32,000 nt of DNA. Origin: Candidatus Methanoperedens sp. GTDB taxonomy: Archaea > Halobacteriota > Methanosarcinia > Methanosarcinales > Methanoperedenaceae. Both the position numbers and the translations under genes were made by a program. The stretch spans positions 90,001-122,000 of the forward strand of contig JBGQBI010000005.1 in assembly GCA_041494705.1 (NCBI GenBank), given 5' to 3'. Below the pieces are notes generated by a model that ran no database searches, had not been told where the DNA came from, and saw only the letters and a program-made list of their open reading frames with translations. Position 1 is the first letter of the stretch; each line of letters begins with the position of its first letter. Positions 5,294-27,729 of this stretch are shown piece by piece.

Positions 5294-5340
5294 GGATTAC
5301 TAAAATTAGAGGATGAAGTAATATAATTTGTGATTTTCAC

Positions 5341-5606: not shown

Positions 5607-6308
5607 CTACCCCTTCTGATAAGCCACATCCGTAAGAGTTGCCATATCACTAACAGCTCCGGCATAAATGGAGGATATCTTTACGCTGAAAATATTGTTG
5701 TAATTATAGGTCTCACCCTCGGACAGAACTTTATCATCTAATTTAATTCCATTTCTGGAAAGAACAAGCCATATCTGTTTTGGGGTTGCTTTGGCATCTA
5801 TTGCCTGTGCCTGGACCGACCAGCCATCACCGATACTCCATGTTTCACCAACAGCCAGGGTTATTCTCGTTCCCGATGTTCCATCAACAGGTTGAGATGG
5901 TGCTGATGCTAAATTTAAATATATGCTGCCTGTCTTTACCCCGCCATTTGAGGTTACGGTGATAGTTCCTTTATAGTTTCCGGGAACGAGGTCAGCGGTA
6001 TTGATATTAATGGTAACAGTACCGGAACCGGTTCCGCTTTCCGGGTAAACTTTTATCCACCATGGCTGGTCGGCTCTTACATTCCAGGACAATGTCCCGC
6101 CGCCGGTATTGGATATCGAGAAGGCCTGATATCCTGCTGCGCTATCAAAATTAAAGGACGGCGGGTCCGGGGATACGGACAGGAGCGGCGGTCTGGCAAT
6201 CAGGTATGCGATTATGCCAATGATGATAATAACAGCAACGATAATCATATTTCTCATGTTTGAAGGCTTCCCCGTGTCTTCTTTTATTTTATCATCTGCT
6301 TCTGCCAT
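5607..6308 (-). CDS. Membrane-anchored surface protein with a BACON/Ig-like beta domain and a C-terminal S-layer duplication-type domain
   Basis: The track ORF 5607-6320 starts at GTG; the first ATG is at 6308 (MAEADD...). It has an N-terminal TM helix (IIVAVIIIIGIIAYLIA). The C-terminal ~85 aa align by eye with the 14590-15117 protein (G-x-[ST]-[WY]...VWL.L...Y.Y...I.[SV][IV]K...). Confidence 0.6.
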   Translation of the reverse strand: MAEADDKIKEDTGKPSNMRNMIIVAVIIIIGIIAYLIARPPLLSVSPDPPSFNFDSAAGYQAFSISNTGGGTLSWNVRADQPWWIKVYPESGTGSGTVTININTADLVPGNYKGTITVTSNGGVKTGSIYLNLASAPSQPVDGTSGTRITLAVGETWSIGDGWSVQAQAIDAKATPKQIWLVLSRNGIKLDDKVLSEGETYNYNNIFSVKISSIYAGAVSDMATLTDVAYQKG

Positions 6309-6512
6309 ATTTCGACCCACGCATAAATTGATGAGCGAATATAAAGATGCATCGGAAGTTATATCATTTGCCGTGCATCTTATGGTTTTTGTTGGCTAAA
6401 AACTTTTAATGCCATAAATCTTATCAGGTTTATAGCTACTGATTTTAAAACAGATTACGATTCTACAGAGCAATTATAAATAGTTTCATCTTTATTTAGC
6501 CTATTCACAAAC

Positions 6513-7790
6513 ATGAAAGTGACAATCCAGAAATCGGACATAAAAGGAACCGTCAACGCCCCTCCCTCAAAAAGCTACACCCACAGGGCTATTGCAATAG
6601 CTGCGCTCTCAAAAAAAGCAACAATCAATAACCCGCTGATATCCGAAGACACAAAAGCAACGATAAGGGCATCCGAAGCTTTCGGGGCTGAAATCGTATC
6701 AAAAAAAGATTCCCTGGTTATCAAAGGGTTTGACGGGAAATTAAAAATCCCTGACAATGTAATTGATGTCGCGAACTCAGGCACCACGCTTCGCATAATG
6801 ACAGCGGTGGCATCGCTTGTAAACGGCGCCACTGTCTTAACAGGCGATGCAAGCATCAGGACAAGACCCAATACGCCGCTTCTGAATGCGCTAAACGACC
6901 TCGGCGCCGAAGCCTTTTCCACGCGCAATAACGGGAAGGCTCCGATTGTGGTGAGGGGGAAAATGAGGGGAGGGGCTGTTTATATCGACGGCTCTGTAAG
7001 TTCGCAGTTCATTTCCGCGCTCCTCATCGCCTGCCCGTTTGCATCAAACAGGACAAAAGTGATGATAAAAGGCGAATTGAAATCCCGTCCGTATGTGAAT
7101 ATTACAATCGATATGCTAAAAGGCGCAGGCGCAAAAATAACCGCAGATAACCCGAACACTTTTACCATTCCGCCTGAGCAGGAATATGACATGAGTTCCT
7201 ATAATGTCCCGGGCGATTTTTCATCTGCATCGTATATGATGGCCGCAGGCGCGCTGTGCGGTGATATTACTATTAAGAACCTGTATCCTTCAGAGCAGGG
7301 TGATTCGGCATTGATTGAAATTCTCGGGAAAATGGGAGCGCAAATCTCATGGAACGAGAAAAAAGGAGAGGTCAGGGTAAGCAAGAGCGAACTTAATGGC
7401 ATCGAAGTGGATGTCGGGAAGACCCCAGACCTTGTGCCAACGCTGGCTGTGCTTGGCGCGGCCTCGAAGGGAACCATGGTCATCGGGAACGCAGAACATG
7501 TGAGGTATAAGGAAACTGACAGGCTTCATGCAATGACAGTTGAACTTAAGAAAATGGGCGTGGACATCACAGAGGAAAAGGACAGGCTCATAATAAAAGG
7601 CGGCGCGATAAGAGGCGCAGAGGTGCACGGCTGGGATGACCACAGGATTGTCATGGCGCTGGCTGTTGCCGGATTGGTGGCTGGCGATACGACAATCGAC
7701 ACGATTGAATCTGTAAGCATTTCGTATCCGGGGTTTTTTGAGGATTTGAAAAAAGTGGGCGCAGCAGTTGAGATGCCTTCGCAGGATTAA
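6513..7790 (+). CDS. aroA: 3-phosphoshikimate 1-carboxyvinyltransferase (EPSP synthase)
   Basis: 425 aa with PPSKSYTHRA, NSGTTLR, DHRIVMA and ISYPGFFEDL motifs. Confidence 0.95.
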   Translation: MKVTIQKSDIKGTVNAPPSKSYTHRAIAIAALSKKATINNPLISEDTKATIRASEAFGAEIVSKKDSLVIKGFDGKLKIPDNVIDVANSGTTLRIMTAVASLVNGATVLTGDASIRTRPNTPLLNALNDLGAEAFSTRNNGKAPIVVRGKMRGGAVYIDGSVSSQFISALLIACPFASNRTKVMIKGELKSRPYVNITIDMLKGAGAKITADNPNTFTIPPEQEYDMSSYNVPGDFSSASYMMAAGALCGDITIKNLYPSEQGDSALIEILGKMGAQISWNEKKGEVRVSKSELNGIEVDVGKTPDLVPTLAVLGAASKGTMVIGNAEHVRYKETDRLHAMTVELKKMGVDITEEKDRLIIKGGAIRGAEVHGWDDHRIVMALAVAGLVAGDTTIDTIESVSISYPGFFEDLKKVGAAVEMPSQD

Positions 7791-7810
7791 AGTATCGCGC
7801 AGGATTACGA

Positions 7811-7826
7811 TATATTTTAATACACC
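7811..7826 (+). promoter_or_regulatory. Putative TATA box for the tRNA-Met gene
   Basis: TATATTTTAATACACC lies about 25-40 nt upstream of the mature 5' end at 7850. Confidence 0.35.
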
Positions 7827-7849
7827 CTTTGCATGTAGGAAAGGTTTGT

Positions 7850-7959
7850 GCCCAGGTGGCCTAGTTGGTTAGGGCGCCAGACTCATAGGGTAAATTTGAA
7901 GAGGCGCTAAAGCTTCCTGAGAAATCTGGAGGTCACGGGTTCGGATCCCGTCCTGGGCA
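7850..7959 (+). tRNA. tRNA with CAU anticodon (elongator Met most likely; Ile2 not excluded), carrying a 36-nt intron at 7888-7923
   Basis: Acceptor GCCCAGG/CCTGGGC, T-arm ACGGG-TTCGGAT-CCCGT, anticodon stem CCAGA/TCTGG. The loop CTCATA is interrupted at position 37/38. CTCA (7882-7885) pairs with TGAG (7918-7921), flanked by two 3-nt bulges, which is a canonical bulge-helix-bulge. Confidence 0.9.
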
Positions 7960-8091
7960 TGCTAACCTAATTTTCCAAACATATTCTTGTGAATACTTCG
8001 CTTCCTTGGGCACTACGGTGTGCGATTTTATTCACAGAGAGCCGCGAAGGTCGCAAAGATAGTTTTAATTGTTGGTTTTTAACTATAAATA

Positions 8092-9078
8092 TTAACAAAC
8101 CTTTGCATCCACCACCACATGCCACACACCCGGAGAGTATTTCTTTATTCTCCGCACACCGATAATCTCCACATTCCTCCCAATCTTCCCCGAAGCCTCC
8201 ATTATTCTCTCAACAGGGCGGCGCTCAACAGCCTCGGGCACAGCCTCATGATAGTGAATAATCCCGCCCGGCACAAGGGCGCGGATGCCCTGCTCAAGAT
8301 AAAGATGTGCGTCTAAATAACCCATGATTACACGGTTTGCAATCCCGCGCGGAGTTACTATCGAGCAGTCACCGGCTACAGGTTCGATTATGTTTCCGAC
8401 CTTGTTAAGCTTGATATTCTGTTTTAGATAACCAAATGCTTCAGGATTAATCTCTATTGCAAATATCTTTCCTGGCTTTGAATGTACTGCCATAGGTATT
8501 GAAAAATACCCGATACCTGCGAACATATCGACAACAACTTCACTCTTCCCCAGCCTGCTCATTCGCTTTTTTTCAGCGAGGTTGCCCTGGGAAAACATTA
8601 TCCGCATGGCGTCAAGCTTAAAAAAGCAGCCATTCTCCTTGTGTATGGTTTCGGTATTTTCCCCGGCGATTATTTCCCTGACCGGCTGCCTCATCTGACC
8701 TGTGATTCCCCTGTCAAGAAGTACTGTCCTGCATGCCGGATATAAAGAAATTAATGCCTCCCCTATCTCCGCTTTTCGGTGTTCCAGTTCTACCTTGAGC
8801 GTAACTATGACAATATCCCCGAGAACCTGCCATCCCGAAGGTAAAAGTTTTTTTTCGCTATCAGGAATATCAAGAACATCGCCGAGGGTTTTTTTCGGGA
8901 TGTATAACCTTGGAGCTTCCTGCTCAACCAGTGTAAAGCCTTTGATATCAAACTTTATCGGGATTTCAACAAAGCTTTCTTTTCTGACGAGCTTCCTTGT
9001 TTTATCGAGCGCATCCTCTAAAAGCAGTTTTTGCCTTACGTTTTCAGCTTCCTCCACTCTCGCAAGAACAGCCTTCAT
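8092..9078 (-). CDS. trm5: tRNA (guanine37-N1)-methyltransferase, Trm5/Taw22 (Met-10+) family
   Basis: 328 aa. The SAM-binding motif VVDMFAGIGYFSIPMA and ...FAIEINPEAFGYLKQNIKLNKV are typical of archaeal Trm5b. Confidence 0.8.
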   Translation of the reverse strand: MKAVLARVEEAENVRQKLLLEDALDKTRKLVRKESFVEIPIKFDIKGFTLVEQEAPRLYIPKKTLGDVLDIPDSEKKLLPSGWQVLGDIVIVTLKVELEHRKAEIGEALISLYPACRTVLLDRGITGQMRQPVREIIAGENTETIHKENGCFFKLDAMRIMFSQGNLAEKKRMSRLGKSEVVVDMFAGIGYFSIPMAVHSKPGKIFAIEINPEAFGYLKQNIKLNKVGNIIEPVAGDCSIVTPRGIANRVIMGYLDAHLYLEQGIRALVPGGIIHYHEAVPEAVERRPVERIMEASGKIGRNVEIIGVRRIKKYSPGVWHVVVDAKVC

Positions 9079-10073
9079 GGATTTCTTGCAATGTACAGGA
9101 TATCACTCAGGATAGAACTTGCAGTCTCTATCGAACCCGCCCCTTTCCCGCTGATTGTTATCCTTCCTGCAAGGTCTGTCAATATCGACGCCACGTTCAA
9201 TGTCCCGCCCACAGCAAGCGGGTGGCGCTTCGGGACAAGGCGCGGCGCGACGGTAAGCTTTCCCTCGCGAGCCTCGCATACGAGTTTCACCACATAATTA
9301 TTCTTGTTTGCAAGTTCAAGCGCTTCTGGTGTGATTTTCGTGATACCTGTAACATCCACGTCGCTGTAAGTTGCATTTTGCCCGAATATCGAATTTGCGA
9401 TAATGACCAGTTTGATGGCAGAATCGATTCCTTCAACATCATATGTCGGGTCGGTTTCAGCAATCCCAAGTTCCTGCGCCTCTTTCAATACAAGCTCATA
9501 AGGCATGCTTTCTTCCGCCATCCTTGTCAGGATATAATTGCAGGTGCCGTTAAGTATGCCCTCAATCCCGATAATGGAATTTCCGGCCAGAGCCTCATGT
9601 ACGAGGTTGAATATCGGGACAGCACCGCCAACGGTCGCCTCATACCGCAGGTGCAATCCATTATCTTCAGCAGCCTCCTTTAACTCGGTGAAACGCAATG
9701 CAAGCGGGCCTTTATTTGAAGTGACCACATGCCTCCCCGCCTTTAGCGCGGCGCGTATGTTGCCAAGTCCGGGTTCTCCGTTTTTAATATTCGTGGGAGT
9801 TACTTCCACAATAATATCCTGTTCCACATCACGTATGATTTCAAGCGCCGTTTCTGTCCCTGTTGCGACGGTGCCTTTCTCTTTTTTCCTGTTCAAGGCA
9901 TTTTCAAGGTCTATTCCCTTAGTGTTTATTTCACTGCCCTTGGAATCGGATATTCCCACGACGCGGATATCATAACCCTGTTTTTTAAGATATTCCTGTT
10001 TTGAAAGGAGCGAACGGGCGACTCCCTGCCCCACGGCGCCAAACCCGATAATTGAAATCTTAATAGTCTTCAT
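9075..10073 (-). CDS. hom: Homoserine dehydrogenase
   Basis: Rossmann motif ISIIGFGAVGQGV, followed by a GILNGTCNYILT catalytic-domain motif. 4-nt overlap with the upstream ACT gene. Confidence 0.92.
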   Translation of the reverse strand: MKTIKISIIGFGAVGQGVARSLLSKQEYLKKQGYDIRVVGISDSKGSEINTKGIDLENALNRKKEKGTVATGTETALEIIRDVEQDIIVEVTPTNIKNGEPGLGNIRAALKAGRHVVTSNKGPLALRFTELKEAAEDNGLHLRYEATVGGAVPIFNLVHEALAGNSIIGIEGILNGTCNYILTRMAEESMPYELVLKEAQELGIAETDPTYDVEGIDSAIKLVIIANSIFGQNATYSDVDVTGITKITPEALELANKNNYVVKLVCEAREGKLTVAPRLVPKRHPLAVGGTLNVASILTDLAGRITISGKGAGSIETASSILSDILYIARNP

Positions 10074-10582
10074 GCTTCCACCGAATTCATCCGTATTGGT
10101 TCTATCATAAGCAGGTCTTTTTTATTTGCCACATCCCTGAGGATATCCAAAGCCATGCCCAATTCTTTCTCGCCGACGGCATTGATGACAAGGTACGCGG
10201 ACGATGTTTTTTCTATGGCCGGCATTGAGAGCGACATGTCCACAACTTCTGCAAAACCTGTTGAGTCTATCCTGTCGATGGTGTCTCCCATGTCCGAATG
10301 AACGATATGCCCTATAAGAATTACAGAAACCGTGGACCGCAGGCGCTCTTCCCCGACCCTTGCTACCCTGACGCCGCTTTTTTCAAGCCGCTGGATGAGT
10401 TTGTTAAGGACCGTGTGCTCTATCTCGAAAGTGACCTGCACCGGGATTGTTCCTCTTGGTGTCTTCTCGTAATGCTGGTGCACGACACTCATGATATTGC
10501 CATGGAGTTCCGATATTGGCGCGAGCGCCAGAACCAGTTGCCCGGGGATATCCTTGAGTTCAAGGGTCATCGAAATTATCAT
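10070..10582 (-). CDS. ACT-domain (amino-acid-binding) protein, co-transcribed with hom
   Basis: LELKDIPGQLVLALAPISELHGNI is an ACT-like beta-alpha start. The track start at 10591 is GTG; ATG alternatives are at 10582 and 10570. Confidence 0.7.
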   Translation of the reverse strand: MIISMTLELKDIPGQLVLALAPISELHGNIMSVVHQHYEKTPRGTIPVQVTFEIEHTVLNKLIQRLEKSGVRVARVGEERLRSTVSVILIGHIVHSDMGDTIDRIDSTGFAEVVDMSLSMPAIEKTSSAYLVINAVGEKELGMALDILRDVANKKDLLMIEPIRMNSVEA

Positions 10583-10664
10583 GACTCTCACTATGCACAG
10601 GTGAGTAATAAGTTTTTTTGGTGGTTGGGAACTGTTTTAATTAATTGTTATATTGGATTTAACC

Positions 10665-12614
10665 TCATTCCCTCTCCTTCACAAGCACATCAACCACAGA
10701 AGGGTCTGCCAGCGTGGTAATATCGCCGAGATCATGAATAGCCCCTGATGCAATTTTCCTCAATATTCTCCTCATGATTTTCCCCGAGCGCGTCTTGGGA
10801 AGCGCATCCGCGAATTGAAGTTTCTCGGGTTTTGCAATCGGGCCTATGGAATTCCTGACATGAGCTATGAGTTCTGCCTTCAATTCGTTGCTTTTTATTT
10901 TGCCTTCCTTGAGCGTGACAAATGCATAGATAGCTTCACCTTTTATCTCATGCGGATAGCCAACCACTGCTGCCTCGGCAACTGCATTGTGGGATACAAG
11001 AGAACTTTCGATTTCCATAGTTCCGAGCCTGTGTCCTGAAACCTTTATAACATCATCTAATCTTCCCATTATCCAGTAATAACCATCCTCATCTTTCCTT
11101 GCTCCGTCCTCGGTCTGGTATAGTCCAGGGAAAGTGGTGAAATATTTGTCCTTGAAACGCTTGTGGTCGCCGTAAACCGTTCGCATCATCCCGGGCCAGG
11201 GCTTCTTGATAACAAGCTGCCCCCCTTCATTGACATCTGCTTCCTTGCCATCCGCTCTCAAAACCACCGGCTCGATACCCGGGAAAGGAAACGTCGCAGA
11301 GCCCGGCTTAAGCGGCGTTGCGCCCGGAAGAGGAGTTATCAGGATGCCTCCAGTCTCGGTCTGCCACCATGTATCAACTACAGGGCATCTCCCGTTCCCG
11401 ATAATGTTATAATACCAGAGCCATGCTTCCGGGTTTATGGGTTCTCCTACCGTACCAAGAAGCCTGAGGCTTGAAAGGTCTCTTCCTTTTGGCCACTTAT
11501 CTCCGCTTTTTTCCATTGCCCTGATAGCCGTAGGTGCGGTGTAGAAAATCGTAACCTTATATTTTTCAACGAGTTCCCAGAACCTGTCAGGTTTCGGATA
11601 ATCCGGCACCCCTTCGAACATAAGCTCAGTCGCCCCCGCTGCCAGTGGTGCATATACCGTATAGCTGTGACCTGTTACCCATCCGCAGTCCGCGGTGCAC
11701 CAGTAGGTATCCTCATCGCGGTAATCGAATATCCACTTAAAGGTCAGCAATACATATAGCAGGTATCCGCCTGTGGTATGCAGCACGCCTTTTGGCTTGC
11801 CCGTACTCCCGCTTGTGTAAAGGATGAACAGCGGGTCCTCGGCATCCATCGCTTCAGGTTCGCATTCCTCTGAGACTGAAGACATTTCTTCATGCCACCA
11901 GAAATCTCGTCCTTTTTGCATATTTACGCTGGCATCGGCGCGATTATAAACAATCACCGTTTCCACGCTGTTTTCAAGCGCCCTGTCAACATTCTCTTTA
12001 AGCGGCACCATCTTACCGCCCCGCAAGCCCACATTTGCCGTGATTACCATCTTACATGAACTGTCATGAATGCGGTCGCGCAGTGAATCTGCGCTGAAAC
12101 CCGCGAATACCACGTTGTGAATGGCGCCGATTCTTGCACATGCAAGCATCGAAATCACAAGCTGCGGTATCATCGGCAAATAAATTGCCACCCTATCGCC
12201 CTTCTTGATTCCTTTTTTCCTCAGAACGTTTGCGAATTTACATACTTCGGTATGCAATTGTGCGTAGGTATAACTCTCGGTGTCCCCGTTATCGCCTTCC
12301 CAGAATATGGCTATTCTATTCCCGCGTGAAGAAAGATGCCTGTCAAGGCAGTTGTACGATGCATTCAGTTTTCCCCCTTCAAACCATTTGCATATTACGT
12401 TATCAGGCTCCCATGAATAAACACTGTCCCATTTTTTAAACCACGCAAGGTCCTCCGCTTTCTGCGCCCAGAAAGATGCAGGGTCTTTAATGGAAGCGTC
12501 ATAAATTTTTTTATATTCTTCAAAACTTTTTATATATGCTTTTTTGCTGAATTCCGGTGCGGGGTTAAATATACGTTTTTCCTTAAGTAGGGATTCAATA
12601 GTGTATTCGGCCAT
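10665..12614 (-). CDS. acs: Acetyl-CoA synthetase (AMP-forming)
   Basis: 649 aa with [19 protein letters not shown] and [11 protein letters not shown] motifs. Confidence 0.96.
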
Positions 12615-13029
12615 ATTGCTTTACCTGCCTTAGCTTAATTCATTGTCTCCATTAAATAAGTTATCAGGTTCCTGAAGGAATAAATCTGAGGTATCAGAAG
12701 AGTCTATATTAATCAAAGCATTATAAATCTTTATTTTACAAAATAAACTGTAAATAACTGTGTTTAACTTAAAATACACTTACCCCTTTGTTTCAACTGG
12801 AAAAACATATTGGACAATTATGGATATTATTATCACGAAGCGAACACCAGAAGGGATTTATTATTATATTAAGGCTATTTTAAGCTTGATTTTTAAAAAA
12901 TACGTAATTAACCATTGTTTTTTGATTTAAACACTAATTAACCTTTATTTCGATTGAAAAGCTTAAATATTAGGAGTTACATCTATTCACATGTCGTTCA
13001 CAAAATATTTCACCTAAGAAGGAGACATC

Positions 13030-13096
13030 GGAGGGGAAATCCGCATGTCAGGGCTGTCCGCTACGAACGGGCGGACAGCACCTCCAATTTTTTGAG
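13030..13096 (+). promoter_or_regulatory. Leader hairpin, then a T6 run, then a GAGG Shine-Dalgarno directly upstream of the 13102 ATG
   Basis: A 9-bp stem GCTGTCCGC (13053-13061) / GCGGACAGC (13071-13079) is enclosed by GGAGG (13030-13034) / CCTCC (13081-13085). TTTTTT follows at 13088-13093 and GAGG at 13094-13097. Confidence 0.35.
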
Positions 13097-13101
13097 GCAT
13101 C

Positions 13102-13629
13102 ATGAAATTACGGCTCGAAATCGAAGGAAAAAATGCAGGCAGCATAAATTATAAAGGGCCTGACTGCGCCGAACTTGCTGTAACTTATCTCAATTCAATC
13201 GAAGCCGATGAGGTTTTTATCCACCTGGAAAAGGATGACGGGACGAGAGCAAATGCGCAATTCGAAGGCGAATTCCTCGCCATGTCTGCCACTAAATTCA
13301 TCATGACGGCTGCAAAAAGTAAAACCGCTGCCCCGCAGGATACATCCTTTCCAACAGGCATCGACGAGTCCGAGCCACTCACTTTGAAAGAGCGTTTAGA
13401 GATGTTCCTGCGATTTGAATATCCCAGGATATGGTTCTCATCCATCGATGTAAAACGACAGTACGAGAACGTTTACGGGAAAATCAGCCTGAGCACCGTA
13501 TCAACATACCTGGCAAGAATGTACAGGGACAATATACTTTTGCGGAGAGGAAATCGCAACCAGAGGGAGTATCGGTTTAAAGAGGAAACCGCTCTTCTCT
13601 CGAATATGGAATATGCACTGGCAAAATGA
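13102..13629 (+). CDS. Hypothetical protein with a probable C-terminal winged-helix DNA-binding domain
   Basis: 175 aa with a good SD and ATG. The C-terminal half (ISLSTVSTYLARMYRDNILLRRGNRNQREYRF) looks like a wHTH recognition helix plus wing. The N-terminal half is unrecognised. Confidence 0.5.
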   Translation: MKLRLEIEGKNAGSINYKGPDCAELAVTYLNSIEADEVFIHLEKDDGTRANAQFEGEFLAMSATKFIMTAAKSKTAAPQDTSFPTGIDESEPLTLKERLEMFLRFEYPRIWFSSIDVKRQYENVYGKISLSTVSTYLARMYRDNILLRRGNRNQREYRFKEETALLSNMEYALAK

Positions 13630-13651
13630 ATGTGCAAAAATAGTGATGGGT

Positions 13652-13897
13652 TGATGAGCCGACCCTTCAAGGCTAACTTTCAGGGCTTACAGCACCCTCG
13701 CAACACTAAAACTCTGTGTCGGCTTCGCTGTAAATCGCGCTCCATGCGCTTTCTTATAGCACCCCGGACACGGGAGAAATCCCAGTCAAACCACTTCCTT
13801 TCAGACCTTGAACGGTCACGGGGCATTCACGCCCGGGAAACTTGGAATTTACTATATTCCAATATGGTCATTCTGCCGATTTCTTGCTAGCTCATCA
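13652..13897. ncRNA. Candidate structured RNA of unknown class; strand unresolved
   Basis: GC-richer block between AT-rich flanks. TGATGAGC (13652-13659) pairs with GCTCATCA (13890-13897). Internal hairpins include GGGA-GAAA-TCCC (13772-13783), CCCCG/CGGGG (13762-13766/13819-13823), GCTGTAA/TTATAGC around GCGC-TCCAT-GCGC (13727-13760) and TTGGAAT/ATTCCAA (13842-13862). The overlapping 86-aa ORF is R/S/C-rich and unconvincing. Confidence 0.3.
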
Positions 13898-13906
13898 TAG
13901 CGTGCG

Positions 13907-13932
13907 CCTTATTACACACATTTGTAATAAGG
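13907..13932. terminator. 9-bp hairpin CCTTATTAC/GTAATAAGG followed by a T-rich tract
   Basis: Stems at 13907-13915 and 13924-13932 with an 8-nt loop. On the plus strand it is followed by TAAATGATTATTTTATTTTATC. Confidence 0.35.
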
Positions 13933-14005
13933 TAAATGATTATTTTATTTTATCATGATTAATACTTTTCGATAACAAAACTGATAAAAAATAAGGTCAC
14001 ACTAT

Positions 14006-14230
14006 CTAATTAATAGTTTCAAGCTTGAACATCACATTTAAACCCTGCAATGTCATCTGAACTTTATCACCAAAACGCAGAATTTCCTCTACATTCACAT
14101 TTGTCCCCCATTCATAAACGTAATCGTGGGTTCCCTGCATTGGCTTGAACCCCAGGGACATAAGCCGCTGATTAATCTCTGATGGTTTTCCGCCTTCACT
14201 GTTAAACCATACGATTAGATAGCTTTTCAT
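14006..14230 (-). CDS. Small conserved-looking hypothetical protein (74 aa)
   Basis: ATG-started ORF with globular composition (MKSYLIVWFNSEGGKPSEINQRLMSLGF...). No family recognised. Confidence 0.5.
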   Translation of the reverse strand: MKSYLIVWFNSEGGKPSEINQRLMSLGFKPMQGTHDYVYEWGTNVNVEEILRFGDKVQMTLQGLNVMFKLETIN

Positions 14231-14270
14231 TGTTCTATAAGTTATTATTAATATTATATCATGTTTTTGG

Positions 14271-14525
14271 TCAATTCTCTTTATATCCCATCTCAGCTAA
14301 TAGATTCCTTGCTATGTCGAGTGAATCTTCTTTGGTCCCGGCTTTGATAAGCATTCTTCCGCTCGGGTACATCGAGATCTCCACTCCTTTATAATTCAAA
14401 AGCAGTATGTGTTTTGTCGCTACTTTTGTATCGAAAATCCTGCTTGCGCTGATAAGATCAATTTTAATATTGGTGCTCACTTCAAAAGCTGTTCTTCCGG
14501 AACATAATCTTACAGAAATTACCAT
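14271..14525 (-). CDS. Small hypothetical protein (84 aa), possibly with a TBP-like fold
   Basis: The segment VEISMYPSGRMLIKAGTKEDSLDIARNLL resembles the x-[LIV]-F-x-SG-[KR]-x-[LIV]-x-x-G-x-x-x-x-x-[EA] pattern of TBP-like domains. This is inference only. Confidence 0.45.
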   Translation of the reverse strand: MVISVRLCSGRTAFEVSTNIKIDLISASRIFDTKVATKHILLLNYKGVEISMYPSGRMLIKAGTKEDSLDIARNLLAEMGYKEN

Positions 14526-16836: not shown

Positions 16837-16901
16837 GTTATTATATGCCGCTTATATGCGTTCATTATCGGTTAATATTTTACTAATTGTCATACAAAAT
16901 A

Positions 16902-19157
16902 CTAATCGTTCTTCCATCTCATTTTAGCTCTCACCATCCTTATTTCCCCATACGAAAAATTATCCCCCAACTTTTCCTTTATCGGTTTCAGGGTATCTCC
17001 CCCCAATTCAATGATCGTCCTCGATATCGCTTCGATCTTTTCTTTCTTAATGAACTTCTCAATCTGGATATTTTCTCCTGAAACCATCAATTTTTCAATG
17101 TGACCATAGATAGTATTCAAAGATAAATTCCTTGTTAATGTGATCTCATCAAGATCCATTCCCTGATCCAGCATTTCCAGGGTCACATACTCACTGGACC
17201 GCTTTTTCACGGGCTGGATAAATGAGCTTTGTTTCTCGCAAAACCTGCGGATCTCGCTTATGAAAATAGCGCCATATCTCTCAAGTTTCTTATCTCCCAC
17301 ACCTGTTATCTTTCGAAAATCCAGAGGAGTGCATGGGCGCAGCGCAGCCATCTGTTTCAGGCTGGCGTCATTAAATATCATATATGGCGGATAATTCTCG
17401 GCGTCAGCCAGTGTTTTTCTTAATGTCCGAAGCGCCTCGAACAATCCACTGTCATCGGAATCCTGCTCTATTATTGCAGGTTTTTCGACAGCCTGGGGTT
17501 TTGCAAGGTATATTTTTTCGTGTGTCACCTCCCCTTTTGTACCAACTAATAAATCCCTGCTCTTCTGGCACAATTTCAGGACAGGATATTCGCCTTCCAA
17601 TTTGAGATAGTCGCGCTGGATGAGTTCTCGAATAAACCCATGCCATATTTTCTTCGGCAGGTTCTTACCCGACCCGTATGATTTCAATATCGTGTGACCG
17701 TTATGCATAACGCGGCTGCTTTTGCTTGCTGTAATCACATCTATGCAATAGTTTATCCCGAACATTTCATCCAGTTCCTGGACACAGGAAATGATAGTCA
17801 ATATCTCACCAGTTGCTTCGATCTCATCCTTTGGCATGAGGCAGTTATCGCAGCCATTGCACTTATTCTCTTTATAGTCCTCGCCAAAATAACCAAGGAG
17901 GAGCTTCCGCCGGCACACGGTTGTTTCACAAAAATTTATGATGTCCATTAATTTATTATGTGATATTTGCCTTTCCTTTTCATTTGCCATCTGGTTTATG
18001 AAATACTCAATCTTCTGCCTGTCGCCGTAGCTGTAGAAAAGCACGCAATCGCTCCTCAGCCCGTCCCTGCCTGCGCGTCCTGTTTCCTGGTAATAGGCTT
18101 CAAGGTTTTTGGGGAGGTCATGATGTATCACAAAACGTATGTTGGGTTTGTCGATGCCCATTCCGAAAGCGACAGTGGCGACAAGTATTTCCACATCATC
18201 TTTTATGAACTTTTCCTGGTTCGTTGACCTTATGCTCGCGGAAAGACCCGCATGATACGGAAGCGCCCGAAACCCTGCAAATTTCAGGTTTTCTGTGAGA
18301 GATTCTACGTTTTTCCTGCTGTAGCAGTAAATTATACCTGATTCACGGGGCTTTGTTTTTAAGAACTCTACTATCTGCCTGAATGCATCCTGCTTGGGTT
18401 TGACATAATAAACAAGGTTCTCCCTGTCAAAGCTTGCAATATATTTTCTGCAATCTTTGAGTTCAAGCTGGTTGACGATATCTTCCCTGACTTTCATGGT
18501 CGCTGTGGCAGTAAGGGCAATTATGGGGACATCAGGAAAAGCCGCGCCGATCAATTTCAACTGCCTGTATTCAGGCCTGAAATCATGTCCCCATTCCGAG
18601 ATGCAGTGAGCTTCGTCAATTGCGAACAGGCTTATTTTTAATCCCTTTAAAAATGAATGGAACGAAGGGATGGTCAGTCTTTCCGGCGCAATATAGAGAA
18701 GCCTGACCCTGTTTTGCATTAGGGCGGATTTTATTTTTATAATTTCTTCGTAATTCAATGAACTGTTGAGATACTCAGCCGGGATGCCATTTGACCTGAG
18801 GCTGTCCACCTGGTTTTTCATCAGGGAAATGAGAGGAGAGACTACGATCGTTAATCCCTTAAAAAGCAGGGATGGATACTGGTAGCACAGGGATTTTCCA
18901 CCGCCGGTGGGCATCAGAACAAGTACATCATTCCCTTTCAGGACGTCAAGTATTATATCCTGCTGGAGCTGCCTGAATTCGGAATAACCAAAATAGCGCC
19001 TGAGTATTTCTTTATCGATAACTGTGGACGTCCCATCTTTCTGCGCCTGGGGTTTTACCGTTTTTTCAACGGTTTTCAATTTTGGGCACAGGTCAAAAAG
19101 CCCTTCATCTTTTAACCCGCACCTATCGCATGCTTCGCATGTACTGCAAACCTGCAT
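16902..19157 (-). CDS. recQ: RecQ-family ATP-dependent DNA helicase with HRDC and C-terminal HTH domains
   Basis: FGYSEFRQLQQDII, MPTGGGKSLCYQ, DEAHCISEWGHDFRPEY, the zinc-binding CRRKLLLGYFGE...CDNC and an HRDC-like LFEALRTLRKTLADAENYPPYMIFNDASL. The track start at 19178 is TTG; the first ATG is at 19157. Confidence 0.9.
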   Translation of the reverse strand: MQVCSTCEACDRCGLKDEGLFDLCPKLKTVEKTVKPQAQKDGTSTVIDKEILRRYFGYSEFRQLQQDIILDVLKGNDVLVLMPTGGGKSLCYQYPSLLFKGLTIVVSPLISLMKNQVDSLRSNGIPAEYLNSSLNYEEIIKIKSALMQNRVRLLYIAPERLTIPSFHSFLKGLKISLFAIDEAHCISEWGHDFRPEYRQLKLIGAAFPDVPIIALTATATMKVREDIVNQLELKDCRKYIASFDRENLVYYVKPKQDAFRQIVEFLKTKPRESGIIYCYSRKNVESLTENLKFAGFRALPYHAGLSASIRSTNQEKFIKDDVEILVATVAFGMGIDKPNIRFVIHHDLPKNLEAYYQETGRAGRDGLRSDCVLFYSYGDRQKIEYFINQMANEKERQISHNKLMDIINFCETTVCRRKLLLGYFGEDYKENKCNGCDNCLMPKDEIEATGEILTIISCVQELDEMFGINYCIDVITASKSSRVMHNGHTILKSYGSGKNLPKKIWHGFIRELIQRDYLKLEGEYPVLKLCQKSRDLLVGTKGEVTHEKIYLAKPQAVEKPAIIEQDSDDSGLFEALRTLRKTLADAENYPPYMIFNDASLKQMAALRPCTPLDFRKITGVGDKKLERYGAIFISEIRRFCEKQSSFIQPVKKRSSEYVTLEMLDQGMDLDEITLTRNLSLNTIYGHIEKLMVSGENIQIEKFIKKEKIEAISRTIIELGGDTLKPIKEKLGDNFSYGEIRMVRAKMRWKND

Positions 19158-19245
19158 GAAAGCTATTGACAATTCCAATCACAATAACGGTTTCTATGAG
19201 TCTGTTGTTGCTGTTGATGCGAATTTCTGGAATTGTCTAAACGAA

Positions 19246-19377
19246 CAGCGCTGCATCGTCGCCAGAGTTGACCAGCTCATGTCCCTCTGCGACGAGCTCG
19301 AAGCCAGGCTTGCGCGCTCGCAGGCGGACAGCGAGAGGTTGATGGAGGCGGTTGTGGGGAGGATGCTGGCGGAGTAA
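19246..19377 (+). pseudogene. hsdS: Orphan 3'-terminal fragment of a type I R-M specificity subunit gene (hsdS), repeat copy 1
   Basis: It translates to QRCIVARVDQLMSLCDELEARLARSQADSERLMEAVVGRMLAE*, the conserved C-terminal coiled-coil region of HsdS proteins. There is no TRD and no plausible start upstream. The track ORF 19024-19377 is otherwise antisense to recQ. Confidence 0.7.
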
Positions 19378-19425
19378 CGGGAAAAGCAAATAAGCAATTA
19401 AAACAATTACTAACTTGAGAAATAC

Positions 19426-19758
19426 ATGGTTAAAGACAAAATAGCAGAAGCCATTAAATTCTTTGAGAATTGTTTGAAAGAAAAAGGATTGAAAGTTTCA
19501 AAGATAATTCTATTCGGGTCGCACAGCACGGGAAAAGCGACTATAGATAGCGATGTGGATATTCTGATTATTTCTCCGGATTTTCAGAACAAAGATATTT
19601 TTGAAAGGGCAAGATTGACGAAGGAAGCAGAGATAAACACCATAAAAAAATTCAGGGTGCCACTTGATATTATCACTCTCACTTCTGAAGAATTTGAAAG
19701 TGGTAATTCTCTTATTACTGACTTTGCAAGAAAAGGCAAAGTAATGTATGCAGCCTGA
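19426..19758 (+). CDS. Minimal nucleotidyltransferase (MNT-type, as in HEPN-MNT modules), with no HEPN partner
   Basis: 110 aa. FGSHSTGKATIDSDVDILIISPDF is the G[SG]-x9-13-D-x-D Pol-beta-type NTase motif. Confidence 0.85.
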   Translation: MVKDKIAEAIKFFENCLKEKGLKVSKIILFGSHSTGKATIDSDVDILIISPDFQNKDIFERARLTKEAEINTIKKFRVPLDIITLTSEEFESGNSLITDFARKGKVMYAA

Positions 19759-19759
19759 T

Positions 19760-19890
19760 AGCGCCGCATCGTCGCCAGAGTTGACCAGCTCATGTCCCTC
19801 TGCGATGAGCTCGAAGCCGCACTCCTGCGCTCGCAGGCGGACAGCGAGAGGTTGATGGAAGCGGTCGTGGGAAGGATGATGACAAGGTAG
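19760..19890 (+). repeat. hsdS 3'-end repeat copy 2
   Basis: It starts 2 nt after the MNT stop and reads RRIVARVDQLMSLCDELEAALLRSQADSERLMEAVVGRMMTR*. It is roughly 86% identical to copy 1 and 91% to copy 3 by hand count. Confidence 0.8.
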
Positions 19891-19950
19891 CACTTTTGCA
19901 ACAGACTGCTTTATCTATTATAAATGAAATAATCAAGTTAAGTGAATTAA

Positions 19951-20124
19951 ATGGTTGTTGACATACAAGAAGCATATAATCTCATGGGGTTCTTGAAGAA
20001 ATTGAAACCAGAAACTGGCGTGAATGTAGCCCAACAAATGGTTGGAAAATTCAAAGGAATAATCCCTGAAGGCAGAAGCAGCGTTGATTTTTTAAAGAAA
20101 GTTCGTGAAAGTCAATATGACTAA
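19951..20124 (+). CDS. Putative VapB-like antitoxin (57 aa; below the track cutoff)
   Basis: My translation: MVVDIQEAYNLMGFLKKLKPETGVNVAQQMVGKFKGIIPEGRSSVDFLKKVRESQYD*. The stop overlaps the PIN ATG by 8 nt. A TTATAAAT motif lies about 30 nt upstream. Confidence 0.5.
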   Translation: MVVDIQEAYNLMGFLKKLKPETGVNVAQQMVGKFKGIIPEGRSSVDFLKKVRESQYD

Positions 20125-20569
20125 AATTTACATTGATACGAATATTTTTTTCAATGTCTGGAATGAGGAGATAGACCCTAAGAGCGGAAAAGAACTCTGG
20201 AGAAGTTCCAGGGATATACTCGAAAAAATCGAAAGAAACGAATTTGAGGCAATAACCTCAATTACTACAATAATGGAAATAGTCCATGTTTTCAGGGTAA
20301 GGGGCAAGGATTATAACGAAGCTATAGAAGATGTCAAGAGACTGAATGTCAGTATTAATGCACCGGACTCCTGGGTTATGATCAAAGCGCTGGAATACCA
20401 GATGGAATATGAATTAGATCCTTATGATTCAATAGCTTTTGCAATTGCCCAAACTGCCGGATGTGAGATTTTCGTTACAAGGGATGAAAAAATAATAAAG
20501 AACATAAGACTGAAAATGCGCGGTGCAAGGCCCGAAGAAATTTTGGAACGAACATCAGATAAATCATAA
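20117..20569 (+). CDS. vapC: PIN-domain ribonuclease toxin (VapC-like)
   Basis: MTKIYIDTNIFF..., with conserved acidic positions (IDTN, MEI, DPYDS, TRDE). The track start at 20105 is GTG; the ATG at 20117 is preferred. Confidence 0.8.
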   Translation: MTKIYIDTNIFFNVWNEEIDPKSGKELWRSSRDILEKIERNEFEAITSITTIMEIVHVFRVRGKDYNEAIEDVKRLNVSINAPDSWVMIKALEYQMEYELDPYDSIAFAIAQTAGCEIFVTRDEKIIKNIRLKMRGARPEEILERTSDKS

Positions 20570-20572
20570 TTA

Positions 20573-20704
20573 CAGCGCCGCATCGTCGCCAGGGTTGATC
20601 ACCTCATGTCCCTCTGCGATTCTCTCGAAGCCGGACTCCTGCGCTCGCAGGCGGACAGCGAGAGATTGATGGAAGCGGTCGTGGGAAGGATGCTGGCGGG
20701 GTAG
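20573..20704 (+). repeat. hsdS 3'-end repeat copy 3
   Basis: It starts 4 nt after the PIN stop and reads QRRIVARVDHLMSLCDSLEAGLLRSQADSERLMEAVVGRMLAG*. Confidence 0.8.
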
Positions 20705-20798
20705 AATTTATCATTTGAATTTTTAGGTGTCGCTTAGGTGTACACGTATCACGACCCGTTCAAAAGGTTTATGTCTTAGAAGTAAGATATAACTTACT

Positions 20799-21077
20799 AT
20801 GAATGCCACAATTGATATGGTAACTATCTCCTCAAAAGGTCAGATAGTAATTCCTAAAAAGATCCTAAAAGCCCTTGGATTGAAAGAGCAAGATAAGTTA
20901 TTGTTATTCAATAAAGGCGAAAATATTATTTTAAAAAAAGTTAAACCTGAGATGTTTGAGAAAAATTTAAGGGACATATTAGCGCCAATTCGTAAGGAAG
21001 CAGAAGCAAAGGGATTGACTGAAAGAGATGTAGAAATTGAGATAAAAGCACATAGAACGCAAAGAATCCAGGCATGA
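20799..21077 (+). CDS. AbrB/SpoVT (MazE-like) family antitoxin
   Basis: VTISSKGQIVIPKKILKALGLKEQDKL is a SpoVT-AbrB swapped-hairpin motif. ATGA overlap with the downstream PIN gene. Confidence 0.8.
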   Translation: MNATIDMVTISSKGQIVIPKKILKALGLKEQDKLLLFNKGENIILKKVKPEMFEKNLRDILAPIRKEAEAKGLTERDVEIEIKAHRTQRIQA

Positions 21078-21484
21078 TACGATTAGTAATTGATACAAAC
21101 GTCTTTGTTTCTGCTTTGATATCAACCAGAAGTATTCCTGCGCTGCTTCTTGATGAAGCGGGGAAAAAATACTCACTTTTTATATCAAAAGAAATACTGG
21201 GCGAAGTGGAGGACGTTATTTCAAGAAAGAAATTCGGGTTTACTAAACAAAAAATAAATTCAGCCATGGAAGCTATCTTGTCATTCTCTGAAATCATAAA
21301 TCCAGAGATAAAAGTAGATGTTATAAAATCAGACCCTGATGATAATAAAATACTGGAATGTGCGATCGCATGCAAGGCGCCATATATTGTTTCAGGCGAT
21401 TCTCACTTGCTTGACCTGAGAGAATATGGTAGTATCAAAATAATAAATCCAAAGACCGCACTTGAATTATTGAATAACTTATAA
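21074..21484 (+). CDS. PIN-family toxin (PIN_3 / TIGR00305-like)
   Basis: MIRLVIDTNVFVSALIS... then DPDDNKILECAIACKAPYIVSGDSHLL, typical of this PIN subfamily. Confidence 0.85.
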   Translation: MIRLVIDTNVFVSALISTRSIPALLLDEAGKKYSLFISKEILGEVEDVISRKKFGFTKQKINSAMEAILSFSEIINPEIKVDVIKSDPDDNKILECAIACKAPYIVSGDSHLLDLREYGSIKIINPKTALELLNNL

Positions 21485-21490
21485 AAATAA

Positions 21491-21515
21491 ACCAACTCAT
21501 GTCCCTCTGCGAGGA
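21491..21515 (+). repeat. hsdS 3'-end repeat copy 4 (25-bp remnant)
   Basis: ACCAACTCATGTCCCTCTGCGAGGA matches ACCAGCTCATGTCCCTCTGCGACGA of copy 1 at 23 of 25 positions. It lies 6 nt after the PIN stop. Confidence 0.55.
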
Positions 21516-21558
21516 ATATTATGTTATCATATAGGTTGAACCAAAGGTCGATATTCTC

Positions 21559-22428
21559 ATGAAAAGAGTAGGGATAGCGGTAACTGATCCTGATGACTGG
21601 ACTGGCCTTGCTTTTCAGAATGCCGTCAGGCAATATGGCATGCATCCGGTCACATTCAGCTTCGATGATGCGACCTCGGATATCTCATCAGGAAAAATAT
21701 ATGCGGGAAAAATAGACCTTGCAGGGCTTGATGCGATTATCGTAAGAGACTTGGGACCTGCGACGCATAACGATGTCTCGTTCAGGTTTGATATACTCTG
21801 CCAGCTAAAAGAACTTGGCGTTGCGGTCATAAATTCACCGGAATCAATAGCTAAAGCGGCAAACAAATATGTTTCAAGTTTTTTGTTCCAGAAAAACGGC
21901 ATACCAACACCCAAAACTATTGTGACAAACAATCTGGATGAGGCTCTTTTTGCATTATCTTCTTTCGGGCGCGCCGTGGTGAAACCTGTGTTCGGGTATA
22001 AAGGAGTAGGAGTGGAGTGTGTCAGGGACAGCGAAAGCGGAGCGTTGAAACTCAAAAAGCTCTTTAAAGAAAAAAGATTGATATATATTCAGGAATTCAT
22101 ACCAAATCCGGGCAGGGACATTCGGGTATTTGTGGTGAACGGGAAAGTTGCGGGCTCGATATACCGGATTGCGCCGGAAGGCGGCTGGATAAATAACCTG
22201 AGCCAGGGCGGCAGCGCAAAACCCTGTGTGTTGACCGACGAACAGGAAAGACTGGCTCTTAAAGCCGCCGGGGTTATCGGGACGGTATATGCAGGCGTGG
22301 ATATTATCGAGGGGGATAGGGATTACGTTATAGAGATAAACGGAACGCCTTCGGGTAAGGGAATATTTGAGGCGTGCGGGGTGGATGTTACAAGGATGAT
22401 TGCTGAATATTTAGAAAGGTTGATTTAA
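21559..22428 (+). CDS. RimK-family ATP-grasp alpha-L-glutamate ligase (MptN/CofF-like)
   Basis: 289 aa with an ATP-grasp pattern (VVKPVFGYKGVGV, IYIQEFI, RVFVVNGKV, GVDIIE...VIEINGTPSG). In methanogen-type archaea this family ligates glutamate to H4MPT or F420. Confidence 0.82.
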   Translation: MKRVGIAVTDPDDWTGLAFQNAVRQYGMHPVTFSFDDATSDISSGKIYAGKIDLAGLDAIIVRDLGPATHNDVSFRFDILCQLKELGVAVINSPESIAKAANKYVSSFLFQKNGIPTPKTIVTNNLDEALFALSSFGRAVVKPVFGYKGVGVECVRDSESGALKLKKLFKEKRLIYIQEFIPNPGRDIRVFVVNGKVAGSIYRIAPEGGWINNLSQGGSAKPCVLTDEQERLALKAAGVIGTVYAGVDIIEGDRDYVIEINGTPSGKGIFEACGVDVTRMIAEYLERLI

Positions 22429-27229: not shown

Positions 27230-27496
27230 TCAATATTTCCGGTAGATCTTTTTCCTGTGACCTGCTTCTATCACCAGGATAAGCAAACGCTCATTTTCTA
27301 TGTAAAGGATAGCCCGATATTCACCAACACGGTGAGTATATAGAGGATTCTTTTGTGTCCCTTTGATCTTTTTTACATGAGGGGAAGGATCATCTTTAAT
27401 GCTGTTGATTGATCGAATTATGCTCTGTGCAATTTCCAGAGGTAACTTTTTGAGATCCTTTCTTGCTTTTGAAGTATATTCGACCTTATAGCTCAT
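27230..27496 (-). CDS. relE: RelE/ParE-family toxin
   Basis: 88 aa. The pattern YKVEYTSKARKDLKKLPLEIAQSI...HRVGEYRAILYIENERLLILVIEAGHRKKIY is canonical RelE. Confidence 0.88.
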   Translation of the reverse strand: MSYKVEYTSKARKDLKKLPLEIAQSIIRSINSIKDDPSPHVKKIKGTQKNPLYTHRVGEYRAILYIENERLLILVIEAGHRKKIYRKY

Positions 27497-27729
27497 TTCA
27501 GGTCAAATTCTTTCATGATCTCTTCTTCGGAATGCAGGCGTCCGTGCTTTATGTCTTCAAGAGCTTCTTCTATACCTTTTATCGCCTCATCGCTGAGCGG
27601 TTCTTCATCTATTGCCAGATTAGTCAATCTTTCTATAACGGAACTATACGATTCACGGGAATGATATTTTAGAGAGGTAAGTTTATCCTTTACCTTTGGG
27701 TCTAAACATATCGTTGTGGTAGCTGTCAT
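27493..27729 (-). CDS. Cognate antitoxin (RHH/RelB-like)
   Basis: 78 aa with a 4-nt overlap with relE. The N-terminal beta-strand and helix pattern (TTICLDPKVKDKLTSLK...SYSSVIERL) fits a ribbon-helix-helix. Confidence 0.7.
   Translation of the reverse strand: MTATTTICLDPKVKDKLTSLKYHSRESYSSVIERLTNLAIDEEPLSDEAIKGIEEALEDIKHGRLHSEEEIMKEFDLK

Follow-up and report, generated by a model that had tools for sequence, protein, structure and literature searches.

Cassette arrays of toxin-antitoxin genes bounded by hsdS-derived repeats in Candidatus Methanoperedens

The genes for the specificity subunits of type I restriction-modification (R-M) systems, hsdS, are shuffled through their conserved regions on lactococcal plasmids. 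In Helicobacter pylori, target-recognition domains (TRDs) are swapped through the conserved regions of hsdS by homologous recombination (PMC3077401). In the pneumococcal tvr locus (SpnIV), which is a phase-variable type I R-M system, direct repeats in hsdS guide the excision and reintegration of a segment that bears toxin-antitoxin (TA) genes, and a recombinase-independent route operates on the longer repeats (PMC6265443). TA genes have also been described in the gene neighbourhoods of type I R-M operons and of defence islands (PMC5499597). The integrons reported from archaea are classical attC/IntI elements (PMC9668308), and a recent paper on the extrachromosomal elements of Methanoperedens mentions type I R-M and TA genes only separately. 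Here, a 32,000-nt stretch of a Candidatus Methanoperedens sp. genome (assembly GCA_041494705.1, contig JBGQBI010000005.1, positions 90,001 to 122,000) was analyzed, which also corresponds to contig JBGPSC010000025.1 of assembly GCA_041489935.1. This whole stretch is referred to as the window, and coordinates are window positions unless preceded by an L-number, which denotes one of the loci compared. Between recQ and mptN, the window contains an array of three TA-type cassettes that are bounded by direct repeats derived from the 3' end of hsdS. No description of cassette arrays bounded by hsdS tails was found in the literature searched by full text.

Repeats derived from the 3' end of hsdS

Repeat finding identified three direct repeats of 136 nt each in the window (19247-19382, 19760-19895, and 20574-20709), with 85–90% identity. 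When counted to their own stop codons (TAA at 19375-19377, TAG at 19888-19890, and TAG at 20702-20704), these repeat units, hereafter tails, are about 131 nt long (19247-19377, 19760-19890, and 20574-20704). A four-member family of 25-nt repeats was also found, which includes a remnant at 21491-21515. The 17-mer CTCATGTCCCTCTGCGA occurs four times in the window, all on the + strand, compared with an expectation of 0.06, and four occurrences were reached in none of 100 shuffles. The G+C content is about 60% in the repeat units and about 35% in the cargo around them. Every element of the array lies on the + strand, and recQ alone lies on the - strand.

The repeat is the C-terminal conserved region of type I hsdS. 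In L005, the repeat unit forms the last 130 nt of a 330-aa (amino acid) gene with a Methylase_S domain, and the encoded HsdS protein matches the solved HsdS structures 3okg, 5ybb, and 2y7c. The region covered corresponds to the conserved "EQxRIVAxVDxLMxLCDxLE..." coiled-coil helix, which follows each TRD; both the position of the unit in L005 and the structural matches uphold the claim of a preliminary description of the window that the repeat encodes the conserved C-terminal coiled-coil of HsdS. Tails close full hsdS genes in L009, L018, L026, and L053 as well as in L005, and the homologs of the tail peptide bear PF01420 or S-subunit names. Among the 53 arrays with enough upstream sequence, about 13 have a first tail that ends a long hsdS-like open reading frame (ORF). 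In the real hsdS genes of Methanoperedens, the first ~58 nt of the unit recur in the central conserved region, about 850 nt upstream of the tail, and four bacterial genomes have this first ~58-nt part only. The tails have a G+C content of 61%, compared with 60–65% in the conserved regions of real hsdS genes, 42–45% in their TRDs, 36% in the cargo, and 43% in the flanks; the composition of the repeat is inherited from hsdS.

In the window, repeat 1 covers profile positions 1-130 and has 93% identity to the family consensus, and repeats 2 and 3 were delimited by repeat alignment. The segment immediately upstream of repeat 1 (19179-19246, + strand) reads in frame into the repeat (...FWNCLNEQ/RCIVARV, with the slash at the repeat start) and is probably what remains of the last part of an hsdS TRD. 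The E-Q codons directly 5' of repeat 1 are retained, as in the full L005 hsdS and the first tails of other arrays. No Pfam match was obtained for the 65-aa translation that runs from upstream through repeat 1. Stop codons separate repeats 2 and 3 from the sequence upstream, and none of the window tails shares an ORF with a TRD. No TRD, hsdM, hsdR, or recombinase gene was detected among the window genes by Pfam searches of the window ORFs tested and in a 20-kb gene table, as the preliminary description had also reported.

When the tail of copy 1 was used as the query of a protein search, 82 matches were obtained, all of 38–105 aa, including many from Methanoperedens and several pairs on one contig. 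Exact-pattern scans provided 24 loci among GTDB species representatives and another 46 in metagenomes; most of these data are metagenome-assembled genomes (MAGs) and metagenome contigs, with loci of 8–20 kb. With a nucleotide profile (nhmmer), 179 tails were located in 77 non-redundant loci, nearly all from Methanoperedens/Methanoperedenaceae. Two to six tails are present in 56 of these 77 loci, and the tails are co-oriented inside every one of them. The arrays occupy unrelated chromosomal contexts, with 131 representative flank proteins matching 205 Pfam families, and the tails are 85–95% identical across genomes in which the neighbouring DNA is unrelated. Conserved blocks within the tail are found at positions 30-46 and 66-90, the first of which is inflated by the search pattern used, and the most conserved central block spans approximately 62-90. 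Viruses and plasmids were rejected as carriers of the unit, as pattern scans of viral contigs and a search of PLSDB plasmids with the unit as query found no tail. Tail identity is 88.9% within loci and 86.5% between loci, and concerted evolution of the tails was rejected on account of this marginal excess.

Several observations concern the hsdS sequences themselves. An exact 27-nt match to the hsdS conserved region (19276-19302) is present in four bacterial loci (L010, L012, L022, and L029), which are from Pseudomonadota MAGs, Pleionea mediterranea, and Rahnella rivi. Together with the G+C contrast between conserved regions and TRDs in the real hsdS genes of Methanoperedens, this match suggests that the DNA of hsdS conserved regions has been shared or exchanged between domains, or else that recombination drives it to high G+C. 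In L031 and L032, a type I R-M operon (3717-9362 in both) is divergent from the array; its hsdR is apparently split (157 and 544 aa) and its hsdS is short (299 aa). The hsdM of this operon is flanked by extra small ORFs and a pair of helix-turn-helix (HTH)-MNT and HEPN genes, such that TA genes also occur inside the hsd operon proper.

Recurrent TA cassettes and the surrounding genes

The 101 segments between tails fall into 34 types, of which 14 are recurrent. Most of these segments are 0.4–1.05 kb in length, with a median of about 770 nt. Their cargo consists mostly of TA pairs (DUF2683 and ParE, DUF2281 and PemK, AbrB and PIN_3, and a 57-aa protein and PIN). The same TA-dominated cargo includes HEPN and MNT, winged HTH (wHTH)-MNT and HEPN, a 62-aa protein and ParE, a 106-aa ORF with TumE, UPF0175 and PIN, BrnT, and a Fic/DOC protein. 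Some of the cargo, namely that of types 5 and 8, is on the opposite strand. No TRD remnants were found between tails, the inter-tail segments being mostly TA genes. The order of the cassettes is permuted among loci, with types 0-1 in L005 versus 1-0 in L056, 0-3 in L030 versus 3-0 in L033, and 2-8 in L070 versus 8-2 in L059. Taken together, the recurrence and reordering of cassettes in 77 loci agree with the preliminary description in treating this structure as a real cassette array rather than a single decayed hsdS, and the unit flanks other cargo elsewhere, as that description had proposed to look for.

All three cassettes of the window belong to recurrent types. The first (19378-19759, + strand) is an MNT-only variant of type 4, which consists of a 48-nt leader and a gene for an MNT/MntA-like nucleotidyltransferase (19426-19758; Pfam NTP_transf_2 and Polbeta); the match of its product to the NCBIfam model MntA_antitoxin is below the cut-off. 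This MNT-only cassette (383 nt) is also found in L036 and L044, and its HEPN and MNT parent is found in L006, L026, and L031. The second (19891-20573, + strand) is of type 7 and contains a gene for a putative 57-aa antitoxin (19951-20124) and an overlapping PIN toxin gene (20105 or 20117 to 20569; Pfam PIN and PIN_3). No family match was obtained for the 57-aa ORF. The same cassette is present in L009, L021, L032, and L034, with different neighbours. The third (20705-21490, + strand) is of type 3 and contains genes for an AbrB/MazE-type antitoxin (20799-21077) and a PIN_3 toxin (21074-21484), as supported by Pfam (MazE_antitoxin and PIN_3) and NCBIfam (AbrB and TIGR00305); it also occurs in L003, L020, L030, L033, L045, and L074. 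A toxin domain with an adjoining small antitoxin gene, as in type II and type VII TA modules, is thus found in the 57-aa/PIN and AbrB-MazE/PIN_3 cassettes, and the MNT gene stands alone. The array ends with the terminal tail remnant (21491-21515, + strand), which was recognized by the repeat family and by a profile match and covers approximately profile positions 25-48.

The left flank of the array is the RecQ helicase gene (16902-19178, - strand; Pfam DEAD, Helicase_C, RecQ_Zn_bind, RQC, HRDC, and HTH_40), for which an annotated ATG start is at 19157 and a gene call is at 7477-9732 in L001. The right flank is mptN (21559-22428, + strand), a core gene that encodes the tetrahydromethanopterin:alpha-L-glutamate ligase of the RimK family (NCBIfam MptN_Meth, 348 bits; Pfam RimK); its orthologs were found in many Methanoperedens genomes and assign the organism to Candidatus Methanoperedens. 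The repeats, cargo, and flanks of the preliminary description, which placed three TA-type cassettes bounded by direct repeats between recQ and a RimK-like gene, were all reproduced. The remaining large ORFs of the window are housekeeping genes, and the only tRNA gene, which could be considered as a target near the array, is 14 kb away. A known RNA family or a tRNA as target was rejected, as Rfam gave no match at E<=1 other than one at chance level. A pair of ParE-toxin and DUF7557 genes lies on the - strand 6 kb downstream of the array (approximately 27230-27729), with no adjoining hsdS tail. In L030, a pair of the ParE/DUF7557 type (9361-9860) is directly upstream of the first tail of the array.

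Several cassettes are of unusual content. The MNT gene without a HEPN partner (19378-19758 in the window, as well as L036, L044, and L080) keeps the leader of the HEPN and MNT cassette; as an orphan antitoxin gene, it has either spread among several genomes or been retained in them. A few larger cassettes encode giant proteins of 590–1235 aa with many HEAT-like repeats (PDKKQAWxDLxRLTSD...), namely those in L068 and L059 (types 12, 13, and 16) and L057 (type 32), and one of these proteins (type 13) has a C-terminal S-adenosylmethionine (SAM)-methyltransferase domain. A conserved non-coding cassette of about 160 nt is located between tails in six loci (L049:4033-4191 in flipped coordinates, L021, L059, L070, L037, and L064) and includes the motifs CGCGGATGACGCGGAT and ATCTGCGTTCATCTGCGG. 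In L037 and L070, this element contains a nested, G+C-rich palindromic insert.

Probable exchange between repeats and the alternatives

Comparisons with relatives indicate that cassettes were gained or lost at this locus. In the closely related L080 (about 87–90% nucleotide identity to the window), DUF5616 is followed by recQ, a decayed tail, MNT, a fragment of a tail, and mptN, and the terminal junction is that of the window (...TGCGAGG/AATAT...). A segment of 1721 nt (19771-21491, + strand), which comprises the rest of repeat 2, the type 7 cassette, repeat 3, and the type 3 cassette, and therefore both PIN cassettes, is missing from L080. BLASTN joins window positions 19770 and 21492 at L080 position 3012, and the end points of the gap correspond to position 11 in repeat 2 and position 27 at the start of the remnant. 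The tails in L080 are decayed (82% identity to the consensus). In two more distant relatives, L081 and L082 (mptN 88% and 79% identical, respectively), DUF434/DUF5616 has a 4-nt overlap with mptN, and there is no recQ or array in between. A further pair, L031 and L032, has 99.6% identity over 10.8 kb up to a tail start, after which the two loci have different cassettes.

The junctions of cassettes and tails are informative about where exchange occurs. The junction between cargo and the following tail is specific to the cassette type, whatever comes next; the tail starts at approximately position 25 after AbrB and PIN_3, approximately 52 after type 6, and 1-7 after most other types. Upstream of a cassette, the tail is nearly always complete up to its natural end (126-130), and a leader specific to the cassette type comes next. 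These constant junctions indicate that the 5' part of a tail moves with the left cassette and the 3' part with the right cassette, such that exchange takes place inside the tails. To map breakpoints, pairs of cassettes that are 98–100% identical and have different neighbours were compared. The last mismatch in the upstream tail is at profile position 20, 96, 100, 100, 116, or 124, and the first mismatch in the downstream tail is at 5, 12, 12, 27, 60, or 70. The breakpoints lie between 5 and 124, and no single crossover point fits all pairs.

The tails after type 6, which lack positions 1-51, still have varied downstream neighbours, and the terminal tails end at many positions (48, 56, 74, 86, 92, 96, 100, and 107-112). 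In L064, a tail and the ~160-nt spacer element are tandemly amplified (409-nt period, 2.8 copies, and 94% identity), as unequal crossing-over would give. Together, the scattered breakpoints, the neighbours of the type 6 tails, the ragged array ends, and the amplification in L064 favour homology-driven exchange and make a site-specific enzyme less likely. On balance, it seems reasonably probable that homologous recombination between the hsdS-derived repeats, with the 3' ends of hsdS genes as starting points, is how the arrays exchange, gain, and lose cassettes.

In such a process, the co-oriented tails (~130 bp and ~61% G+C) would serve as portable homology, and recombination between any two of them would allow the enclosed cassettes to be replaced, added, deleted, or amplified. 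This could occur through unequal crossing-over, through pop-out/pop-in of circles, or through double crossover or gene conversion in which the partner DNA is incoming or belongs to the sister chromosome. Because about one-quarter of the assessable arrays start at an hsdS-like ORF, arrays probably nucleate at hsdS 3' ends, and each event would regenerate the end of the gene. An array could later lose its hsdS and become an orphan, like that in the window, where only a few hsdS-like codons are left 5' of copy 1. Host recombination of the RadA type may suffice for these events, with no dedicated recombinase, and each cassette may have its own promoter in its AT-rich leader, which has TATA-like boxes. 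The addictive nature of TA cargo may counteract loss of the array.

Some findings weigh against homologous recombination as the explanation. In a test of single-nucleotide polymorphism (SNP) phase, the associations between tail SNPs and neighbouring cassettes were weak and noisy, with a switch from the upstream to the downstream cassette roughly between 61 and 91; this weak signal is compatible with crossovers concentrated in the central block (~62-90). In most cassette types, the junction with the tail is no more than a few nt from the boundary between TRD and conserved region (profile positions 1-7), and these tight junctions are tidier than random capture predicts. Gene conversion among tails is not intense, as the identity within loci is barely above that between loci. 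At the junction between the window and L080, 15 nt of tail are gone and the shared homology is about 24 nt, which is not a clean homologous crossover. Finally, a trans-acting enzyme is invisible in loci of 8–20 kb, and the recombinase screen described below is limited to the best 25 of 205 families. No circular cassette was found among the short metagenome contigs, and no contig with a terminal overlap was found among the loci compared.

The strongest alternative is an integron-like, site-specific system, in which cassettes would be moved as circles, via a core in the tail, by a recombinase whose gene lies at another genomic site or on a plasmid or Borg of Methanoperedens. The candidate cores are the invariant CTCATGTCCCTCTGCGA and an imperfect 7-9-7 inverted repeat (CGCTCGC-N9-GCGAGAG). 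This possibility fits the strict co-orientation, the modular and shuffling cassettes, and the joining of most types to the tail at 1-7. The highly conserved tail blocks at 30-46 (with the inflation mentioned above) and 66-90, and the switch in SNP association, are also in its favour. Moreover, the terminal remnant in the window retains exactly the 17-nt core, and at the tvr and ivr loci of pneumococci, hsdS repeats are the substrates of tyrosine recombinases. However, no recombinase was found in or near any array examined, including the 10 kb around the arrays in L030-L033. In the screen of the 131 flank proteins, which covers the best 25 of 205 Pfam families, no family matched by at least two proteins is a recombinase, integrase, or transposase, although families present once or twice could be missed. 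The breakpoints of near-identical pairs are irreconcilable with one crossover point, and both the type 6 tails without 1-51 and the terminal tails cut at many positions are difficult to accommodate. DNA folding of the three window copies on both strands revealed no hairpin or attC-like fold (z-scores of -0.83 to +1.01 relative to shuffles). Site-specific recombination is therefore considered doubtful. It is likewise unlikely that the arrays are an independently evolved archaeal cassette-capture system, in which a trans-acting recombinase would use the hsdS 3' segment as an attC-like site across the chromosome and possibly plasmids or Borgs.

Two candidates for recombination sites were rejected in this context. 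An attC-like hairpin was discarded, as the fold energies are no better than those of shuffled sequences. The 25-nt remnant was considered as an att core; its left edge (~25) is the junction of the AbrB and PIN_3 cassette itself, and its right edge (48) is the junction between array and host shared with L080. It is thus a truncated tail that always trails the AbrB/PIN_3 cassette and was cut again at 48.

Ordinary decay would explain the arrays as eroded multi-hsdS R-M loci or defence islands with TA genes between the hsdS genes by chance, with the tails as the parts best preserved, and with no ongoing exchange. It is well established that TA genes occur in type I R-M loci (PMC5499597), truncations or frameshifts affect many tails, copy 1 retains upstream hsdS-like codons, and the L080 tails have diverged from the consensus. 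However, the spaces between tails hold no TRD remnants, and the profile position at which tails begin is the same for most of them. Permutation of cassettes at unrelated sites, as seen from the 205 Pfam families in the flanks, largely refutes decay. In addition, close relatives differ by whole cassettes with breakpoints in tails, and the tails remain similar where the neighbouring DNA is unrelated. Decay is thus a very improbable explanation.

Another hypothesis is that the tails are expressed as mini-proteins, with free HsdS coiled-coil peptides that modulate R-M assembly or act with TA modules. All three window copies have intact frames, copies 2 and 3 have an internal ATG (MSLCD...), and many tails are annotated as genes of 40–90 aa. 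Among 34 near-full tails, 21 are intact and the other 13 have frameshifts or stops, yet the latter are still about 85–90% identical as DNA. The third codon positions are slightly more variable, but the variability is nearly flat across codon positions (0.087, 0.066, and 0.117), a bias far below that expected from purifying selection. Furthermore, many tails are truncated at either end, with no consistent start codon or frame relation. In the window, repeat 2 begins 1 nt past the MNT stop codon and repeat 3 begins 4 nt past the PIN stop codon. The preliminary description had given a start 2–6 nt after the preceding stop codon as the rule; across arrays, this gap varies between 0 and 80 nt and occurs in each of the three frames, such that the rule is not general. 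A related rule, under which repeats 2 and 3 continue the frame of the gene upstream and only stop codons intervene, was rejected for the same reason. The repeats act as DNA, not as protein, and a role as mini-proteins is highly improbable. Lastly, an assembly artefact from collapsed or chimeric hsdS paralogs is extremely unlikely; the 130-nt repeats are near the short-read length and the data are mostly MAGs and metagenome contigs, but the three copies differ at 10–15% of positions and have unique flanks, the same gene order (MNT with the same neighbours) is found on four contigs including one of 2.07 Mb, the same architecture is present in dozens of independent assemblies, and L080 keeps an identical terminal junction.

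Several observations were made at the margins of the arrays. Relative to L081 (6336-7876) and L082 (6336-7870), recQ and the array together are an insertion in the window (16837-21558). For a target-site duplication around recQ and the array, such as a short copy, at the right junction, of the 3' end of DUF5616, the similarity is too weak to call. Downstream of mptN, L081 (GCA_041643235.1) contains a dozen tandem paralogous DUF2178 genes (123–142 aa each) and an HTH_3 gene at 9233-14104. In L031, a sequence of about 220 nt past the last tail (14168-14385) is 90% identical to the sequence 5' of the first tail (9616-9838 in L031 and L032), and the motif GCTTCGGGAACATATCGGCGC follows several last tails (L016, L031, and L032). 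Both the ~220-nt sequence and GCTTCGGGAACATATCGGCGC may be conserved array-end or flank sequences.

Significance and relation to known systems

Methanoperedens are nitrate-, iron-, and manganese-dependent methane oxidisers and an environmentally important lineage. If the arrays are indeed shaped by homologous recombination between hsdS-derived repeats, they would represent a second, integrase-free path to an integron-like outcome, in which a gene fragment is reused as portable homology. Small selfish or defence modules could be stockpiled, reordered, and exchanged in this manner, which would explain the spread and clustering of TA genes in Methanoperedens. Type I R-M genes would also be tied mechanistically to TA mobility, with the conserved regions of hsdS being exploitable by other genes. 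In practical terms, the 130-bp unit is a marker at hand for variable defence loci in Methanoperedens metagenomes and a candidate landing pad for genetic tools.

Among the described systems, the pneumococcal tvr locus comes nearest to the arrays, in that its substrates are repeats from hsdS and the excised segment contains a TA pair. In contrast, tvr swaps the TRD segments of an hsdS that is active and lies next to hsdM and hsdR, and it has its own gene for the tyrosine recombinase TvrR, whereas the array in the window has no TRDs, hsdM, hsdR, or recombinase, and the arrays have varied TA cargo at many chromosomal sites of an archaeal host. The exchange of TRDs between hsdS genes is similar in that conserved regions supply the homology, and the spacing of the repeats (~0.6–1.0 kb) is comparable to that of a TRD (~0.8 kb). 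However, whole foreign genes are swapped in the arrays, and the product is not HsdS. As in the reports of TA genes in R-M loci, PIN-, HEPN/MNT-, ParE-, PemK-, and Fic-type modules are physically linked to hsd genes; the arrays differ in being repeat-bounded and shufflable, and most of them, including that in the window, have no adjoining hsd genes.

Accretion of integrative elements at a 3' end, through integrases that target tRNA or other genes, is another parallel that the preliminary description had drawn. As in such accretion, the unit carries the 3' end of its target, hsdS stays intact, and repeats pile up downstream (L005, L009, and L026). The starts of about 13 of 53 arrays at hsdS and the regeneration of the tail by each unit sustain this comparison as far as the layout is concerned, and it is the closest of the layout analogies drawn. 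Unlike these elements, the arrays have no integrase that could be found and no fixed att core, their units are only 0.4–1 kb, and their junctions vary.

The resemblance to integrons, which was also proposed at the outset, holds for the layout and fails for the mechanism. Integrons, including the TA-rich sedentary chromosomal ones, share with the arrays the co-oriented short cassettes, the repeats of approximately 60–150 nt, the variable order and content, and the prominence of TA genes. However, no IntI or attI was found in the arrays, and the repeat is an unfolded, non-palindromic fragment of a coding gene with scattered breakpoints and no fixed crossover. Moreover, the cassettes of the arrays are mostly two-gene modules that probably have their own promoters, and some of their cargo is on the opposite strand.

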